Below, one piece after another: positions 5,328 to 42,393 of a stretch of DNA of 64,000 bases. This DNA comes from Escherichia coli. GTDB taxonomy: Bacteria; Pseudomonadota; Gammaproteobacteria; Enterobacterales; Enterobacteriaceae. The position numbers and the translations under genes were made by a program. Position 1 is the stretch's first letter, and the number at the start of each line of letters is the position of its first letter. Where the stretch lies: NCBI RefSeq assembly GCF_024298765.1, contig NZ_CP101210.1; one strand, given 5' to 3'. The notes under the pieces were generated by a model, which worked only from the letters and a program-made list of their open reading frames with translations, did not search any database and was not told the DNA's origin.

Positions 5328-6581
5328 TCAGGCGTGCAGACGATGATGCAAACGCGTCCCGACCAGCAGAGCAATGACCAGCATCAGAGCAATAAATGCG
5401 CCGACGCCGTTCCAGCCATAGTTATGCCAGAAAACACCACCCAGCGTCCCGGCAATACTCGACCCCAGATAGTAACTGAACAGATACAGCGAGGAGGCCT
5501 GGCCTTTAGCGCGTTTTGCGCGGGGGCCGATCCAGCTGCTGGCTACTGAGTGGGCTGCGAAGAATCCGGCTGAGAAGAGTAACATTCCGGCAAAGATCAG
5601 CCACAGCGAGCTAAATAAGGTCATCAGTAAACCAAACAGCATAACCCCCGTCGAAAACAACATCACCGGACCGCGCCCATAGCGGGTGGTCATGGTTCCG
5701 GCTTTGGGTGAGCTCCATGTACCGGTCAAATAAGCCAGCGATAATAAGCCAACCACGGCCTGGCTGACATGCCAGGGGGAGAGCATCAACCGATAGCCGA
5801 CGTAATTAAACAGCGTGACGAACGACCCCATCAGCAAAAAGCCTTCTGCGAACAATAACGGTAATCCCCGGTCACGCCAGTGCAGACGAAAGTTGATGAA
5901 TAACGTCTTAGGGCGCAGTGAAGTCGGGCGAAAATGGCGTGATTCAGGGAGGATTTTCCAGAACATTAACGCCGAGGCCAGCGCGAAACAACCGATTGCC
6001 GCCAGCGCAATTCGCCAGTTGAAAAAGTCCGTGAAGACACCGCTAATTAAGCGTCCGCTCATGCCGCCAATTGAGTTGCCGCTGATATACAACCCCATCG
6101 AAAAGGCCACGAAACTGGGGTGGATTTCCTCGCTAAGATAAGTCATGCCAACAGCTGCTACGCCACTTAACGAAAGCCCAATCAAGGCGCGCATAATCAA
6201 AATGCCGTGCCAGCTGGTCATCATTGTCGAAAGTAACGTACAAATGGAGGCCAACAGTAGCGCCGTGACCATCACTGGTTTGCGACCAATGGCATCGGAT
6301 AACGGGCCAGTAAACAGCAAACCGATAGCCAACATCGCCGTGGAAATGGACAGTGAAATACTACTGTTCGCGGGCGTTAAGCCAAACTCCTGCGAAAGCA
6401 CCGGAAGGATAGGTTGCACACAATAGAGAAGTGCGAAGGTTGCCAGTCCGGCAGAGAACAGCGCCAGGGTGACGCGCATAAATTGCGGCGTACCGCGTTT
6501 AATAAATTGATTTGGCTGAGAAATGCTTTGCTTGTCAGTGTCGCTTGCCGGAGCGCCATCAACAGTTGTAGTACGGCTCAC
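5328..6581 (-). CDS. ynfM: MFS transporter (417 aa)
   Basis: 417-aa multi-helix ORF; synteny with ynfL. Confidence 0.85.
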   Translation of the reverse strand: MSRTTTVDGAPASDTDKQSISQPNQFIKRGTPQFMRVTLALFSAGLATFALLYCVQPILPVLSQEFGLTPANSSISLSISTAMLAIGLLFTGPLSDAIGRKPVMVTALLLASICTLLSTMMTSWHGILIMRALIGLSLSGVAAVGMTYLSEEIHPSFVAFSMGLYISGNSIGGMSGRLISGVFTDFFNWRIALAAIGCFALASALMFWKILPESRHFRPTSLRPKTLFINFRLHWRDRGLPLLFAEGFLLMGSFVTLFNYVGYRLMLSPWHVSQAVVGLLSLAYLTGTWSSPKAGTMTTRYGRGPVMLFSTGVMLFGLLMTLFSSLWLIFAGMLLFSAGFFAAHSVASSWIGPRAKRAKGQASSLYLFSYYLGSSIAGTLGGVFWHNYGWNGVGAFIALMLVIALLVGTRLHHRLHA

Positions 6582-9060: not shown

Positions 9061-9756
9061 ATGCTGAAGCGTTTCTTTATTACCGGTACAGACACTTCTG
9101 TAGGGAAAACGGTGGTTTCCCGCGCATTGCTACAAGCGTTAGCCTCCCAGGGAAAAACGGTTGCGGGATATAAACCCGTAGCGAAGGGGAGCAAAGAGAC
9201 ACCCGAAGGGCTGCGTAATAAAGATGCCCTGGTGTTGCAGAGTGTTTCAACCATCGAACTGCCTTATGAAGCAGTTAATCCTATCGCGTTAAGCGAAGAA
9301 GAAAGTAGCGTGGCGCACAGTTGCCCAATCAATTACACCCTCATTTCAAACGGCCTGGCAAACCTGACCGATAAAGTCGATCATGTCGTGGTAGAAGGGA
9401 CTGGCGGCTGGCGCAGTCTGATGAATGATTTGCGTCCGCTCTCTGAATGGGTGGTGCAGGAACAACTGCCGGTATTGATGGTTGTCGGTATTCAGGAAGG
9501 TTGCATTAACCATGCACTACTAACAGCTCAGGCGATTGCCAACGACGGGCTGCCGCTCATTGGCTGGGTGGCTAACCGAATCAATCCAGGACTGGCGCAT
9601 TATGCGGAAATCATTGATGTGCTCGGTAAAAAACTTCCGGCACCGCTCATTGGTGAACTGCCTTATCTGCCGCGCGCCGAACAGCGTGAACTGGGGCAAT
9701 ACATCCGCTTAGCTATGCTTCGCAGTGTGCTGGCGGTAGATAGAGTCACGGTGTAA
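9061..9756 (+). CDS. ynfK: Dethiobiotin synthetase paralogue (231 aa)
   Basis: [18 protein letters not shown]-loop typical of BioD; ATG at 9061 preceded by GGAG; the ORF track begins at an upstream GTG. Confidence 0.85.
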
Positions 9757-10965
9757 CGTCCGCGAAATTACCGACGCAATTACGCAGGCAATCAATAAAC
9801 CGGGGAGTAGCTGATACTCCCCGGTCATTTCACATATCATCAACGTCGACATAATCGGCGCGTGCGTGGTTGCCGCCAACAGTGTCGCCATCCCGGTCAA
9901 TCCGAGTAAAAGCGTAATTTCTTCGCCATCAGGGAACCATAATCCCAGGCTACGACCATACAACATGCCAATGGCAAGACCGATAAATAGCGTCGGTGTA
10001 AAGACACCACCGGGCGCGCCAGAACCACTACTCGCCAGCACGGCAAACAGTTTACAGAGGAAGATCCCGGCAATGATCATTAACAGTGGCGGGGCGGTTA
10101 AAAAGGATTGTACGGTGCTATAGCCGTTGCCCCACACTGCAGGTGTGAACAGGGAAAGCAGACCCACGATCAACCCGCCCAGTGCCAGTTGCCAGGGCGG
10201 CGCAAGTTTGAGACTTACAAATCCACGATGACAGGCGTTCATCAACGTTAACAACAGTGGTCCGCACAGACCTGCCAGCACACCTGTACTGATAATCAGC
10301 GCATAGTCACGAGCCTGAACCGTCACTGAGAGTTGTACGCTGTAGAGTAACGCGTCGCTATGATTAATCAGATTGCTAACCAGCAACGCCACGACGGCGG
10401 AAATAATCACCGGGCCGAGAGAGGCCAACATCATAGTGCCAAACAGCACTTCGGCTATAAATAAACTGCCAGCAAGCGGGGCGCGATAGGCCGCAGCCAT
10501 TCCCGCCGCAGCTCCACAGGCGATCCATAATTTCCACTCCTGGCGTGGCGTAAAACGTTGCGCAAAACAGGAGGCGGCAAGGGCAGCTAAAAGAATCATC
10601 GCACCTTCGCGACCAATTGCACTGCCGCTGGTTACTACCAGCAGCGAGGCAAGGGATTTAACCAGGCTTGCTGCGTAATCAAACTGCCCATCGGTTTGCA
10701 ACGCTTCCATGTAATCGGTCGGCGCATGAGGGCGTTGCTGGGTAAATTTCTGCCAGCCCATCAGCAACAAACCCGCCGCCAGTCCGCCGAGCGCCGGAGT
10801 TAGCAGCCGTCGCCAGGGGGAAAGATTTGTCGCTGCATTGACCAGACTGCCGGAGTCATTATTGAGGAACAACCACTCCAGTAGCAGCATTGCATGACGA
10901 AACCCGGCAACGGCAAAGGCCGCAAGAATACCGACGACTGTTGCGATAAGCAGACGGCGGAACAT
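9709..10965 (-). CDS. clcB: ClC-family voltage-gated chloride channel (418 aa)
   Basis: Multi-helix ClC-like ORF; start placed at Met21 of the track ORF ([12 protein letters not shown]) to give the expected 418 aa. Confidence 0.83.
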
Positions 10966-27774: not shown

Positions 27775-27966
27775 TTAAAGACCTGCCGGGATTTCGATAT
27801 TATCCTGGTGAATAACTTTATCGACCGGGTAACAGTTACCGGGAATTTTCTGTTCGGTTGCTGCTGTCATACACTCCTGCATTGTCCTGTGAACACTGAC
27901 TGCAATATCAACTGGCTCTCCGGAAACAAGAAAAACTGTCAGAACAAGCGCAAATGCTGAATTCAT
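27775..27966 (-). CDS. ydfD: Small membrane/secreted protein (63 aa)
   Basis: MNSAFALVLTVFLVSGEPVD hydrophobic N-terminus; directly downstream of dicB as in Qin. Confidence 0.7.
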   Translation of the reverse strand: MNSAFALVLTVFLVSGEPVDIAVSVHRTMQECMTAATEQKIPGNCYPVDKVIHQDNIEIPAGL

Positions 27967-28151
27967 TGTGCACATCCTTTTGGCATCAGACGTAAACGAG
28001 CCAGCATTGAAACAATGCATATTTTATTTAATAGCTCCCGTTCTTGTTTTCTCTTGTTAATGGCATCTTCAGTAAATACAGGGTTACTGATAGTGACACC
28101 AATTTCAAAACAACCTTCAGACGTATTAACGTTTGGTAATAACGTTTTCAT
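27963..28151 (-). CDS. dicB: Cell-division inhibitor DicB (62 aa)
   Basis: MKTLLPNVNTSEGCFEIGVTISNPVFTEDAINKRKQERELLNKICIVSMLARLRLMPKGCAQ matches recalled DicB; lies downstream of dicF. Confidence 0.85.
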   Translation of the reverse strand: MKTLLPNVNTSEGCFEIGVTISNPVFTEDAINKRKQERELLNKICIVSMLARLRLMPKGCAQ

Positions 28152-28320: not shown

Positions 28321-28378
28321 AAAAACGGCGGCAGAGCAGTCACGGAGTAAAACTGATACCGCCAAACGTCACCAGAAA
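28321..28378 (-). ncRNA. dicF: DicF small RNA
   Basis: Reverse complement of 28327-28378 reads TTTCTGGTGACGTTTGGCGGTATCAGTTTTACTCCGTGACTGCTCTGCCGCC, the recalled DicF sequence, ending in a GGCGG/CCGCC hairpin and U-tract. Confidence 0.85.
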
Positions 28379-28653: not shown

Positions 28654-28854
28654 ATGACTAAAGAAGAATTTGTCTCTTATATTTTTGATAAAACGGTTGA
28701 AATGTATGCCGCTACTTACGGGTCCTGTAATCCTCTGAATAAACCAGAGGGGAAAGATGATTTCGACAAAATTTACCGCTTCTTGGAGGACCGCTATATC
28801 AAAAGGTTAGAGGACGCAGGGATCAAATCCCCAGTGAAGTCACCATTGTCCTGA
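28654..28854 (+). CDS. Hypothetical 66-aa protein on the strand opposite the dicA operon
   Basis: ATG preceded by AAGGAAA RBS; lies in the spacer between ydfB/C and dicF; its 3' end overlaps the convergent ydfB/C-like ORF. Confidence 0.3.
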   Translation: MTKEEFVSYIFDKTVEMYAATYGSCNPLNKPEGKDDFDKIYRFLEDRYIKRLEDAGIKSPVKSPLS

Positions 28855-29200
28855 GAACTTGCAGGACGTCATGATCGTAACTTCCATCCAAACCGCGACG
28901 GCAAATTGCTTCTCGTATTACCGGAAGCAGTTCGCTGGAAATCTCGGTGCATATTTCACCTGATAATACGCCTGGCTCAAGTGAGAATATTGGTGAACTT
29001 ACGGTCTTGGTCTCGACAGTTTCAGAGTCAGTGCCAACATTATAAAGCTCAACGAAAGCGGTCTTGATTTTCCGGGCCAGATCTTTTGCTGGCTCGCTTG
29101 CAATATCTTTCCCGATTTCTCGCAGCACAGAATGCAATGTATGAGCTGCTGTTTTCTGTACATCAGACGGTAAATCTTTAAATTCCATCGTCAGCCTCAT
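28823..29200 (-). CDS. YdfB/YdfC-like protein, single unsplit ORF (125 aa)
   Basis: Start overlaps the ydfA stop by one base; sequence (MEFKDLPSDVQKTAAHTLHSVLREIG...) spans what are two short genes in K-12. Confidence 0.6.
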   Translation of the reverse strand: MRLTMEFKDLPSDVQKTAAHTLHSVLREIGKDIASEPAKDLARKIKTAFVELYNVGTDSETVETKTVSSPIFSLEPGVLSGEICTEISSELLPVIREAICRRGLDGSYDHDVLQVLRTMVTSLGI

Positions 29201-29352
29201 CAGTCAGTGTTTCTGGCTAACCAGCAACGCGCGCCAGATTCGGTTTTAAACGTTTTGCTTTTGGTATATGTCATCGCGGTGAACGTACCGTCCTGGTTGG
29301 GGAACACGCCACATACCAGAGATTCGCTGTTGCCAAGATCGATAGTATCCAT
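29200..29352 (-). CDS. ydfA: Small protein YdfA-like (50 aa)
   Basis: MDTIDLGNSESLVCGVFPNQDGTFTAMTYTKSKTFKTESGARCWLARNTD; first gene downstream of dicA. Confidence 0.65.
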   Translation of the reverse strand: MDTIDLGNSESLVCGVFPNQDGTFTAMTYTKSKTFKTESGARCWLARNTD

Positions 29353-29466
29353 GCTGACCTCATTTCCCCTTAACGCCGGGGTCGCGGAACTGTTTGCTGA
29401 GAACACCGTGCGGTGTCTTGATGGAAAGTAATTTAGAATAACCTAACATGAGAGGCAAGTGTTTTT

Positions 29467-29484
29467 TGTTAGATTGATCTAACA
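29467..29484. promoter_or_regulatory. Operator-like palindrome TGTTAGA-n4-TCTAACA downstream of dicA
   Basis: Perfect inverted repeat TGTTAGATTGATCTAACA; same half-sites as the palindrome in the dicA-dicC intergenic region. Confidence 0.45.
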
Positions 29485-29520
29485 AAAAGAGTGGGCGCAA
29501 CTAATCACTTGAAAAGAATG

Positions 29521-29928
29521 TTATTTTATTGATTTATTTTTACGCGCTTTAAGCATTTCTTCGAAGAGTTTGTTGAAGTTTTCTACTCTTGCGCGCATTT
29601 CAGACAGCAAGGCTTCCTGCTCGGAAGATGGAAGAGCATCGAATAATTCGATCAATTCTTTGTGGTTGGGAGTTAGCTCTGTTTCCACATGAAGTTCTTG
29701 TGCAGGCACTGGTGCCTTGTCTTCGTCACCAAACATTAGCCATGTAGGTGAGCACTTCAGAGCATCCGCTAAAGCAAACAATCGTTTTCCGACTGGCTGG
29801 GTTTCGTCTCTTTCCCATTGTGAAATTGTGACGTGAGCAACTCCAGCGAGGCGCGCAGCTTCTCGTTGTGTTAAGCGTAATTCTTTTCGTCGCGCCAGAA
29901 CTCGCTGGCCTAGGGTTCTTGTATCCAT
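29521..29928 (-). CDS. dicA: Prophage repressor DicA (HTH_XRE, 135 aa)
   Basis: HTH RLAGVAHVTISQWER and C-terminal ...EMRARVENFNKLFEEMLKARK match recalled DicA; divergent from dicC. Confidence 0.9.
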   Translation of the reverse strand: MDTRTLGQRVLARRKELRLTQREAARLAGVAHVTISQWERDETQPVGKRLFALADALKCSPTWLMFGDEDKAPVPAQELHVETELTPNHKELIELFDALPSSEQEALLSEMRARVENFNKLFEEMLKARKNKSIK

Positions 29929-29950
29929 AGTTAGGTAATTCTAATTTTTC

Positions 29951-29995
29951 TTGACTTAGGTATCCCGCGCACAATAATGTTAGAAAAGTCTAACA
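29951..29995 (+). promoter_or_regulatory. Putative dicC promoter with overlapping operator palindrome
   Basis: TTGACT, a 17-bp spacer, then ATAATG; the perfect palindrome TGTTAGAAAAGTCTAACA at 29978-29995 overlaps the -10 element. Confidence 0.5.
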
Positions 29996-30005
29996 AGAGG
30001 GGGCT

Positions 30006-30236
30006 TTGATGCTTAAAGTTGACGCAATTACTTTTTTTGGCAGCAAAACAAAGCTTGCCAATGCCGCAGGAGTGAGACTGGCAAGTGTTGCTGCTTGGGG
30101 GATACTGGTTCCTGAAGGTCGCGCGATGCGTCTACAGGAGGCATCTGGCGGGGAGCTTCAGTATGATCCCAAAGTTTATGACGAATATCGTAAGACGAAG
30201 CGGGCGGGGCGGTTGAACAATGAAAATCACTCCTGA
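30006..30236 (+). CDS. dicC: Cro-like regulator DicC (76 aa)
   Basis: ...GRAMRLQEASGGELQYDPKVYDEYRKTKRA matches recalled DicC; divergent from dicA. Confidence 0.85.
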   Translation: MMLKVDAITFFGSKTKLANAAGVRLASVAAWGILVPEGRAMRLQEASGGELQYDPKVYDEYRKTKRAGRLNNENHS

Positions 30237-30741
30237 ACAGGCTCGTGAGGCTCTGGATGCCTGGATATGTCGACCAGGAATGACACAGGAGCAGGCGACG
30301 ATATTAATCACTGAAGCATTCTGGGCTTTGAAAGAGCGCCCGAACATCGATGTTCAGCGTGTCACATATGAAGGTGGCGCGGTTGATCAGCGAGCGCTTA
30401 GCGTTAATCGAGTGAAGATATTCGAACGCTGGAAGGCTATCGACACCAGGGATAAGCGTGAAAAGTTCACAGCGCTAGTGCCTGCAATTATGGAGGCTAT
30501 CCGGATTAGTGATTTCAGGTTGTATCGTGAGATCAGTGATGGAAAAAGTATTACGTACATGATCGCCGGGTTAAATAAAGAATATGGCGATGTGGTGGAA
30601 TCCGGACTGCTTTTTGCAGATCCTGCCGTTGTAGATCGTGAAACTGACGAACTTATAGAAAAAGCAATTGCTTTCAAGCTTGCGTATCGACAGCAATACC
30701 AACAAAAAGCTGGATGGAATTATGAGTCTTCTTTTTGCTGA
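30220..30741 (+). CDS. Hypothetical early-region protein (173 aa)
   Basis: ORF overlapping the dicC 3' end and coupled to the replication gene; no family recognised. Confidence 0.5.
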   Translation: MKITPEQAREALDAWICRPGMTQEQATILITEAFWALKERPNIDVQRVTYEGGAVDQRALSVNRVKIFERWKAIDTRDKREKFTALVPAIMEAIRISDFRLYREISDGKSITYMIAGLNKEYGDVVESGLLFADPAVVDRETDELIEKAIAFKLAYRQQYQQKAGWNYESSFC

Positions 30742-32662: not shown

Positions 32663-33688
32663 ATGCACATTTTATCTGTTTCAAAAAAGGAAGTTGGAAG
32701 AGCTGGGGATAGATTAGTTTCTCAGTTTGGTACAGGTGAAAAATATAAAGAGGAAGATGTACAAATTCTTCATGAGTGGAGGATGTTGCATTTATATCCT
32801 TTAAGTAAAATACAATTTTATATGGAAAGAGAGGCTATTTCCTTAAACAAAAATGCGTTACTATCCTCTAGAATTAAGAGGATGCCTTCCATTGTTACTA
32901 AGCTTTCTAGATTTCCTGATATGAAGTTAAATAAGATGCAGGATCTTGGTGGGTGCCGGGCTATTTTAAATAATCTGGATCAAGTGTATGATTTAGTTAA
33001 TAAAATAAAATCATCTAAATTCTCACATGAACTAGTTAGAATGGATGATTACATGATAGACGTGAAAGATTCTGGTTATAGAAGCTTTCATATGGTCTAT
33101 TCATTCCAAAATAAAAAATTTCCATCTTTAAATGGGTTGCGCATTGAAATGCAAATAAGAACAGCTATTCAACATAGCTGGGCTACAGCAGTTGAAATGG
33201 TTGGTTTGTTTCGAAAGGAATCATTGAAATCTGGTTTTGGTGATGCAAGATGGCTTAGGTTTTTTGAATTGGTATCAGAGCTTTTTTATAAACTTGAGTA
33301 TGAAAAAGAACCATCTGGGAGTTATATAAAAATATCAGAAGAATTAAGTTATTTATCCGTCGAGTTGAATGTTTTCGATATATTAGCTGCTTACAATGCC
33401 GTAGTTAGCCATATTGAGGGTAGCAAAAAATATGATAAAGGACTTTGCATAATTGTTGTTGATACCATAAAGCGGAATATAAATATAAAGAGCTTCGAAA
33501 ATCACAATCATGCGAAGGCGGCAGAAGCTTATGTCGAGTCTGAAAAATACTGCGCGGAAAATAAAGGCTGTGAAGTGGCTATGGTTTCTGTTAGTTCAAT
33601 TAGTGAATTAAAAAATGCATATCCTGCTTACTTTTTAGATACGAAAACTTTTTTAAATTATCTCAGTAGGTATGTTTTTATAAAATAA
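32663..33688 (+). CDS. RelA/SpoT-homologue synthetase-domain protein (341 aa); candidate fused toxSAS toxin-antitoxin
   Basis: All four synthetase motifs present: RIKRMPSIVTK (RxKxxxSxxxK), DLGGCR (DxxGxR), GYRSFH, EMQIRTAIQHSWA (ExQIRT...W). About 130-aa C-terminal extension, no adjacent partner ORF, and much lower GC than the flanks. Confidence 0.75.
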   Translation: MHILSVSKKEVGRAGDRLVSQFGTGEKYKEEDVQILHEWRMLHLYPLSKIQFYMEREAISLNKNALLSSRIKRMPSIVTKLSRFPDMKLNKMQDLGGCRAILNNLDQVYDLVNKIKSSKFSHELVRMDDYMIDVKDSGYRSFHMVYSFQNKKFPSLNGLRIEMQIRTAIQHSWATAVEMVGLFRKESLKSGFGDARWLRFFELVSELFYKLEYEKEPSGSYIKISEELSYLSVELNVFDILAAYNAVVSHIEGSKKYDKGLCIIVVDTIKRNINIKSFENHNHAKAAEAYVESEKYCAENKGCEVAMVSVSSISELKNAYPAYFLDTKTFLNYLSRYVFIK

Positions 33689-34211: not shown

Positions 34212-34422
34212 TTTCATATTGGCGAGGTAAAGGTAGTTAAGTAGAATGGCTGCGGGTGCTTGAGGCTATCTGCCTCGGGCATGAACACCAAAGGCAGATA
34301 GAGAAAAGCCCCAGTTAACATTACGCGTCCTGCAAGACGCTTAACATTAATCTGAGGCCAATTTCATGCTAGACACATGTAGGTTAGCCTCTTACGTGCC
34401 GGAAGGCAAGGAGAAGCAGGCT

Positions 34423-34578
34423 ATGAAGCAGCAAAAGGCGATGTTAATCGCCCTGATCGTCATCTGTTTAACCGTCATAGTGACGGCACTGGTAACGAGG
34501 AAAGACCTCTGCGAGGTACGAATCCGAACCGGCCAGACGGAGGTCGCTGTCTTCACAGCTTACGAACCTGAGGAGTAA
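34423..34578 (+). CDS. hokD: Hok-family type I toxin (51 aa) with overlapping mok-like frame starting at 34366
   Basis: MKQQKAMLIALIVICLTVIVTALVTRKDLCEVRIRTGQTEVAVFTAYEPEE matches recalled HokD; AAGGAGAAG RBS; upstream in-frame extension resembles mok. Confidence 0.85.
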   Translation: MKQQKAMLIALIVICLTVIVTALVTRKDLCEVRIRTGQTEVAVFTAYEPEE

Positions 34579-34794: not shown

Positions 34795-35046
34795 ATGATG
34801 AACATCGAAGAACTGCGTAAAATTTTTTGTGAAGATGGCCTCTATGCTGTGTGCGTTGAAAATGGAAATCTTGTTAGTCATTACCGCATTATGTGTTTGC
34901 GAAAGAATGGGGCTGCGTTAATTAATTTTGTGGATGGTCGAGTGACAGACGGATTTATCTTGCGCGAAGGTGAGTTTGTCACTTCATTACAGGCACTGAA
35001 AGAGATCGGAATAAAAGCAGGCTTTTCAGCTTTTGCAGAAGAATAA
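34795..35046 (+). CDS. rem: Rem-like prophage protein (83 aa)
   Basis: 83-aa ORF between hokD and ydfU, as in Qin; identity assigned by position and length. Confidence 0.7.
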   Translation: MMNIEELRKIFCEDGLYAVCVENGNLVSHYRIMCLRKNGAALINFVDGRVTDGFILREGEFVTSLQALKEIGIKAGFSAFAEE

Positions 35047-41982: not shown

Positions 41983-42393
41983 TTAGCGTGGTAAGATCTG
42001 TGTAGTTTTCTGGATGCTTTCAGTAAATAGTAATGAGTTATCAAAGGCATAGTAATATCTTTGGTGTTCCTGGATATTTGTAACCCATCGGAAAACTCCT
42101 GCTTTAGCAAGATTTTCCCTGTATTGTTGAAATGTGATTTCTTTTGATTTCAACTTATTATAGGAGGTCTCTATAAGATGTTTGTTTCTGGAGAATTTAA
42201 CATTTACAACCTTTTTGAGTCCTTTTACTAACACTATGTTGTCGTTTTCTAACACAATGTGAATATTATCTGTGGCTAAATAGTAAATATAAAGTGAGAC
42301 ATTGTGACGTTTTAGCTCAGAATAAAATAATTCACAGTTTAAATCTTTACGCACTTGATCGAATATTTCTTTAAAAATGGCAGCCTGAGCCAT
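41983..42393 (-). CDS. ydfO: DUF1398/YdfO-like protein (136 aa from internal Met)
   Basis: GGAAGG RBS before the ATG at 42393; AT-rich gene; family assignment from memory, moderate. Confidence 0.55.

Follow-up and report, generated by a model that had tools for sequence, protein, structure and literature searches.

The dicA-dicC-dicBp immunity region of the Qin cryptic prophage of Escherichia coli K-12 is said to have been described by Bejar et al. in 1986 and 1988. In the immC region of Salmonella phage P22, 18-bp palindromic operators are found at the rightward and leftward early promoters that flank the repressor gene, a layout which is also that of the DNA considered here.

The K-12 region was studied by Yun et al. 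2012 (PMC3441716) and Ragunathan et al. 2023 (PMC10448788), and operators like those of lambda PR and PL have been described on both sides of dicA (PMC10448788). The literature on this strain contains three operators predicted from the sequence, two of which, Om and Oa, did not bind DicA (PMC10448788, PMC3441716). Oc, located in the dicA-dicC promoter region, is bound by DicA in vivo, with repression of dicC and activation of dicA; a single A-to-C change in its CTAACA half-site leads to loss of DicA binding, and Oc cloned alone gives DicA-dependent repression (PMC3441716). The ydfA-dicF-dicB transcript has its own DicA-repressed promoter, dicBp, situated upstream of ydfA and between dicA and ydfA, and a dicBp-lacZ fusion placed away from the prophage increased 22-fold on deletion of dicA and so was still under DicA control (PMC10448788). 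The Rem protein of K-12 is an antirepressor that relieves the repression of dicBp by DicA (PMC10448788). A gSELEX paper gives the DicA target only as the dicB operon. For DicC of K-12 the strongest ChIP-seq signal lies at the dicA locus, where a DicC site is present to either side of dicA; the motif is palindromic, TTNG...CNAA.

The window, by which we mean the whole 64-kb stretch of E. coli DNA that was analysed, corresponds to a Qin-like lambdoid prophage with a DicA-like repressor, DicC, ydfA, DicF, dicB, ydfD and rem. The 1151 bp around the operators studied here (29150-30300) match the chromosome of E. coli strain 104 at 100% identity; in that chromosome the counterpart is a prophage adjoining rspB with genes for an integrase, an excisionase, an 823-aa exonuclease, ydfD, dicB, ydfA, an HTH repressor, a Cro/CI-family gene, a YdaT-family gene, hokD and rem. 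At least 80% of the query region was covered by a place in about 562 of 5426 complete E. coli genomes. The genes that concern the switch are the following:

29521-29928, minus strand: dicA-like repressor gene, 135 aa, 57% identical to K-12 DicA over the same 135 aa, Pfam HTH_3 at residues 12-64
30009-30236, plus strand: dicC (Cro-like), 86% identical to K-12 DicC, Pfam P22_Cro
29200-29352, minus strand: ydfA (DUF1391), first gene of the dicBp operon, from the RefSeq annotation of the identical record and Pfam
28326-28377, minus strand: DicF small RNA, Rfam RF00039, 72.5 bits against a gathering score of 48
27963-28151, minus strand: dicB, cell-division inhibitor, Pfam DicB (E=2e-40) and RefSeq annotation of the identical record
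27775-27966: ydfD, after dicB, from the RefSeq annotation of the identical record
34795-35046, plus strand: rem, by annotation only ('protein Rem' in the 100%-identical record), homologue of the K-12 antirepressor

The first-pass annotation had recognised here an immunity switch of the DicA/DicC type, and this identification is borne out by the HTH_3 repressor, the P22_Cro-type DicC and the downstream ydfA, DicF and DicB. The N-terminal domain of the repressor matches the solved N-terminal domain of P22 c2 (E=1e-18), and a Pfam search of the 135-aa protein found no Peptidase_S24 domain, the HTH being the only domain recognised; K-12 DicA likewise lacks the RecA-stimulated self-cleaving C-terminal domain (PMC10448788). 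From the gene content of the identical record, the Rfam and Pfam matches and the identities of DicA (57%) and DicC (86%), the prophage is, on sequence grounds, a more complete relative of K-12 Qin that carries a divergent DicA allele.

Other elements were observed to the right of the switch. A protein with a RelA/SpoT domain is annotated at about 32663-33688 on the plus strand (9514-10539 of the strain 104 locus L001 in the identical RefSeq record); its gene may serve in defence or encode a small alarmone synthetase toxin. Just upstream of rem, a Sok antitoxin RNA (34254-34428, plus strand, Rfam 117 bits) adjoins hokD (about 34423-34578), the two constituting a type I toxin-antitoxin pair.

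Two palindromes, TGTTAGATTGATCTAACA at 29467-29484 and TGTTAGAAAAGTCTAACA at 29978-29995, flank the repressor gene, with the sequences and positions that the first-pass annotation had given. Their description there as a 7-4-7 unit (TGTTAGA-n4-TCTAACA) has to be revised, as the seventh base of the half-site (A/T) is variable in relatives and the conserved unit is TGTTAG-N6-CTAACA. This unit, with 12 specified bases, has two perfect matches in the 64-kb window and none in 100 dinucleotide-preserving shuffles of the window; since the analytic expectation is 0.004 per 64 kb, a chance origin of the palindromes is ruled out. Using the same unit with up to 3 mismatches, we searched for weaker sites in the window and in the K-12 locus (L002), and the same four sites were obtained in the same order in both, including two that had been overlooked in the first pass (29431-29448 and 29929-29946):

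29431-29448, minus strand: ObP, proximal dicBp operator, TGTTAGGTTATTCTAAAT, 2 mismatches, in the promoter spacer with its right half over the -10; K-12 counterpart at 3211-3228 of L002, 2 mismatches
29467-29484, no strand: ObD, distal dicBp operator, perfect, ending 8 bp upstream of the predicted -35 with its centre at about -52; K-12 counterpart at 3246-3263 of L002, 2 mismatches
29929-29946, plus strand: Oa-type core-only site, AGTTAGGTAATTCTAATT, 3 mismatches, abutting the dicA start codon; K-12 counterpart at 3707-3724 of L002, 3 mismatches
29978-29995, no strand: Oc-type operator, perfect, covering the -10 and predicted start of the dicC promoter (dicCp); K-12 counterpart at 3757-3774 of L002, 0 mismatches

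The probability of finding the weaker sites by chance is about 0.005 for ObP (within 60 bp on either side of the left palindrome, from which it is 36 bp distant) and about 0.03 for the Oa-type site (within the dicA-dicC intergenic gap). One extra site with 2 mismatches (42237-42254) was taken as a chance match, being located inside a 174-aa ORF, with 2.4 such sites expected per 64 kb.

The right palindrome is associated with the promoter of dicC:

29951-29978, plus strand: dicC promoter (dicCp), -35 TTGACT, 16-nt spacer, -10 AATAAT, 10 of 12 consensus matches in the promoter scan

The TTGACT -35 proposed in the first pass is indeed present at 29951-29956, and the ATAATG proposed as -10 is the register adjoining the one that the scan prefers, AATAAT at 29973-29978 with the 16-nt spacer. 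Similarly, the 77 bp given for the dicA-dicC gap hold with a TTG start at 30006 and become 80 bp with the RefSeq ATG of dicC at 30009. That the palindrome overlaps the dicC promoter was correctly seen: it begins on the last base of the AATAAT and spans the expected start site. It has the same TGTTAG/CTAACA half-sites as K-12 Oc (TTGTTAGTCATAACTAACAA) and occupies the same position, its centre being at -58.5 from the ATG of dicA; by inspection, the K-12 counterpart of dicCp is TTGACT-17-TATCTT.

The left palindrome lies, together with ObP, at the position of dicBp:

29430-29458, minus strand: predicted dicBp, -35 TTGCCT (29458-29453), 17-nt spacer, -10 TAAATT (29435-29430), predicted start at about 29423

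The putative dicBp hexamers were assigned by homology and inspection, as they agree with the consensus at 8 of 12 positions and the scanner, with its threshold of 9/12, made no call. By alignment, K-12 dicBp reads TTGACC - 17 nt - TAATCT, and the -35, the 17-nt spacing and the -10 are conserved across six alleles; the literature examined gave no mapped start site for dicBp. Because the left palindrome stands 8 bp upstream of the predicted -35, with its centre at about -52, it would be a distal dicBp operator and not a site inside a transcript initiated at dicA. The first-pass annotation had placed under its control a dicA-ydfA-dicF-dicB transcript, a proposal that we do not retain, since the K-12 operon has its own promoter and the left palindrome is at the homologous spot upstream of the -35. 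Alignment with K-12 gives instead a separate, predicted dicBp with operators between dicA and ydfA, followed by ydfA, DicF, dicB and ydfD. The right half of ObP, CTAAAT, doubles as the -10 (CTAAAT/TAAATT), so that a perfect CTAACA is not possible at this site.

We then considered the conservation of these sites in 80 IMG/VR loci with DicA relatives of 65-100% identity, of which 48, with 12 distinct DicA proteins, belong to the class of the window, characterised by a helix 2 reading 'TQR..'. Among these 48 loci, all but one of the half-site columns of Oc contain a single base, the exception being due to one locus with CTAACG, and the left half-site of both ObD and ObP is invariant save for its outermost base; by comparison, 2-4 different bases occur per column in the centre (six columns) and in the flanks of the three operators. 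ObD stands at its position wherever a locus of this class retains the ydfA side, mostly as a perfect site, and the ObD-ObP spacing is 35-37 bp in every allele. A second DicA class, about 66% identical, has a helix 2 'SQAALG', as in P22 c2, and an identical helix 3. This class contains no TGTTAG sites: its Oc is CCTTAG-N6-CTAAGG, its ObD (A/G)CTTAG... and its ObP (T/C)CTTAG...CTAAAT. At all three operators, the base 5' of TTAG is thus G in the 'TQR..' class (IMG/VR loci L003-L053 in this comparison) and C in the 'SQAALG' class (L054-L082). The switch of operator type with DicA class amounts effectively to one evolutionary event between two clades and is suggestive, not a statistical proof. One and the same IMG genome harbours both classes (L013 and L077), a coexistence to be expected of heteroimmune prophages. 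The DicA of the window and that of K-12, which share the same half-sites at only 57% protein identity, are on this basis predicted to be homoimmune.

It is very probable that a dimer of the DicA-like repressor has its primary high-affinity operators in the two palindromes, each at a separate promoter, as are OR and OL in lambdoid phages. Their assignment as repressor operators, already made in the first pass, agrees with their K-12-like half-sites and layout and with their conservation among relatives, and binding by the DicA allele of the window is suggested by this conservation and by the change of operator with DicA class. DicA dimers would occupy Oc and ObD first. At Oc, DicA would block the rightward dicC promoter and, as in K-12, stimulate the weak leftward dicA promoter, and at ObD it would probably help a second dimer to load onto the weaker ObP, 35-37 bp away, whose occupancy would exclude RNA polymerase from dicBp and keep the division inhibitors silent. 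Such short-range cooperation between ObD and ObP is plausible, with the reservation that a centre-to-centre distance of 35-37 bp corresponds to about 3.4 helical turns and is not obviously favourable for cooperative dimers. Rem (34795-35046) would relieve the repression by DicA, and DicC bound to core sites, including Oa over the start of dicA, would shut off dicA and give the reverse state of the switch. In lambda, Cro acts at OR3, to which DicC at Oa may be likened.

Compared with the K-12 Qin immunity region, the window has the same gene order (dicC divergent from dicA, then ydfA, DicF, dicB and ydfD, with rem further to the right), the same four sites at nearly the same distances (window/K-12: 49/50 bp for Oa-Oc, 36/35 bp for ObD-ObP and 511/511 bp for Oc-ObD), identical TGTTAG/CTAACA half-sites at Oc and a DicC that is 86% identical. 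It differs by its DicA, only 57% identical, and by its distal dicBp operator, which is perfect in the window and has 2 mismatches in K-12. The integrase, excisionase, full-length exonuclease and full-length YdaT-family gene present in this prophage are truncated or disrupted in K-12, and in the place of ydfB and ydfC, between ydfA and DicF, stands an unrelated ORF of about 121 aa (28823-29188, minus strand), for which Pfam gave no match. The RefSeq annotation also contains a small ORF on the opposite strand that overlaps the end of the 121-aa one (5505-5705 of the strain 104 locus L001).

With P22 immC, the window shares a repressor N-terminal domain homologous to that of c2 and a Cro of the P22_Cro family; by contrast, its repressor lacks a RecA-cleavable Peptidase_S24 domain, and its half-site sequence is different. 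Classical lambda/P22 regions have tripartite operators (O1-O2-O3) at both OR and OL; with up to 3 mismatches allowed, two sites per control region were recognised in the window. The locus is of the Qin type, with an HTH repressor of about 135 aa that has no self-cleavage domain, a divergent P22_Cro-type gene and, by annotation, Rem encoded in the prophage, and not of the classical lambda/P22 CI type with a self-cleaving Peptidase_S24 repressor. It resembles the lambda OL-OR system, with its loop formed by a CI octamer, in that the repressor gene is flanked by high-affinity operators, each located at an early promoter, and in the bistable repressor/Cro logic. Unlike lambda, the operators are separated by 0.5 kb and not 2.3 kb, their phase is not conserved, and Qin-type induction is by the antirepressor Rem and not by RecA cleavage (PMC10448788).

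Two perfect operators with identical half-sites on either side of the repressor gene could also be read as a long-range loop, in which DicA dimers on Oc and ObD form a tetramer, enclose dicA and tighten the repression of both promoters, as does lambda CI at OL-OR. The start-to-start distance of 511 bp, the same in the window and in K-12 despite the 57% identity of their DicA proteins, speaks for this reading, but it is largely due to the fixed length of the 408-bp gene, and the distances recorded elsewhere (509, 511, 515, 518 and 519 bp in the class of the window, 549-579 bp in the second class) have no common helical phase, whereas a lambda-type loop implies a constrained distance or phase. 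In addition, the 135-aa DicA has no C-terminal domain of the lambda/P22 type, neither operator needs the other in cis in K-12, as seen with the displaced dicBp-lacZ fusion and with Oc cloned alone, and a literature search for looping by DicA, or for DicA tetramers or higher oligomers, found nothing. We therefore consider a loop improbable and do not follow the first-pass annotation in its suggestion of looping control through two spaced operators, as no phase is conserved and the K-12 operator regions work apart.

Still less probable, and indeed very unlikely, is that the left palindrome works mainly as RNA, forming a hairpin where the dicA message ends and acting there as terminator or stabiliser. 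The palindrome does extend to arms of 12 nt (29463-29474 / 29477-29488), begins 37 nt past the dicA stop and folds at -9.6 kcal/mol (z = -3.8), and no other terminator is predicted between dicA and dicBp. The dicA-sense strand, however, continues with AAAAAACAC, without a U tract, and the stem is A/T-rich; the homologous K-12 site, TGTTAGCTATAGCATACA, is not palindromic yet keeps the TGTTAG half-site, and a role as hairpin does not explain why the half-site is the same as that of Oc and varies with the DicA class. For the lack of a U tract and the non-palindromic K-12 site, termination was rejected as the main function of the left palindrome, for which we retain that of DicA operator.

No intrinsic terminator was predicted between the dicA stop and dicBp (29436-29521, minus strand), and there may be some read-through from dicA into ydfA. 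In other alleles (e.g. L044 and L055), a clear GC hairpin directly follows dicA, with a T run next to it in L044. Read-through from dicA into the toxic operon may depend on DicA acting as a roadblock at ObD/ObP.

The leader between the predicted dicBp start and ydfA (29360-29425, minus strand) is conserved across DicA alleles, with the succession CATCAAG, a hairpin, CTCAG, GTTCCGC and a second hairpin (CCCC..GGGG). The first hairpin (core 29403-29416) is kept with differing stems (GACACC/GGTGTTC, AATCACC/GGTGATT, AACAC/GTGTT and GAAA.CAC/GTG.TTTC). These hairpins were judged from single-sequence folds, since indels kept the first one unaligned in RNAalifold. The leader has no match to an Rfam family; an antitermination signal of the nut/put kind and an RNase III site are both conceivable.

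DicC has also to be taken into account. Between the two DicA classes only 5 of its 75 residues differ (about 93% identity) and its HTH segment is identical, which fits a protein that reads only the shared core of the ChIP-seq motif. That the palindromes are operators of DicC exclusively is the least credible of the readings, for although the K-12 DicC ChIP-seq peak with its TTNG...CNAA motif puts one site on each side of dicA, the outer half-site bases follow the DicA class and DicC hardly changes between the classes, direct binding of Oc by DicA in vivo is known from K-12 (PMC3441716), and use of the same sites by both DicA and DicC, as in lambda, is to be expected, so that this reading stands only in its exclusive form.

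The Oa-type site is conserved in all alleles and does not vary with the DicA class: the base 5' of its TTAG is A or T in both classes, in agreement with the K-12 report that DicA does not bind Oa. In inverted orientation, Oa and ObP of the window are identical at 16 of 18 positions (29930-29947 and 29430-29447, respectively), central spacer included, with the common sequence GTTAGGT(T/A)ATTCTAA, a resemblance that recurs in several other alleles and is absent in K-12. It is possible that Oa is a site for DicC, and ObP and Oa may be the preferred DicC sites. More tentatively, we suggest that DicA reads the outer half-site bases (G or C next to TTAG), which would define at least two coexisting immunity classes, and that the near-invariant DicC reads only the TTAG-N6-CTAA core with a preference for Oa and ObP; this combined proposal is a possibility that we do not favour over its contrary. 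If it were true, heteroimmune prophages that share a cell could have their switches flipped by a single Cro-like protein.

An OR/OL-like operator pair of this kind is already on record for the Qin-type immunity region; the window has it with a divergent DicA allele and with a distal dicBp operator that is unusually perfect. As the K-12 operators flanking dicA and the separate dicBp have been known since the 1980s and were revisited in 2012-2024, no new principle is involved. What is added is the placing of the left palindrome upstream of the predicted -35 of dicBp, the identification of the weak partner sites, the occurrence of the same half-sites with a DicA only 57% identical to that of K-12, and a second DicA class in which three operators have changed correspondingly. 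The DicA switch decides the expression of the division inhibitors DicB and DicF and of the lysis protein YdfD, and their expression affects the filamentation, phage resistance and viability of E. coli.
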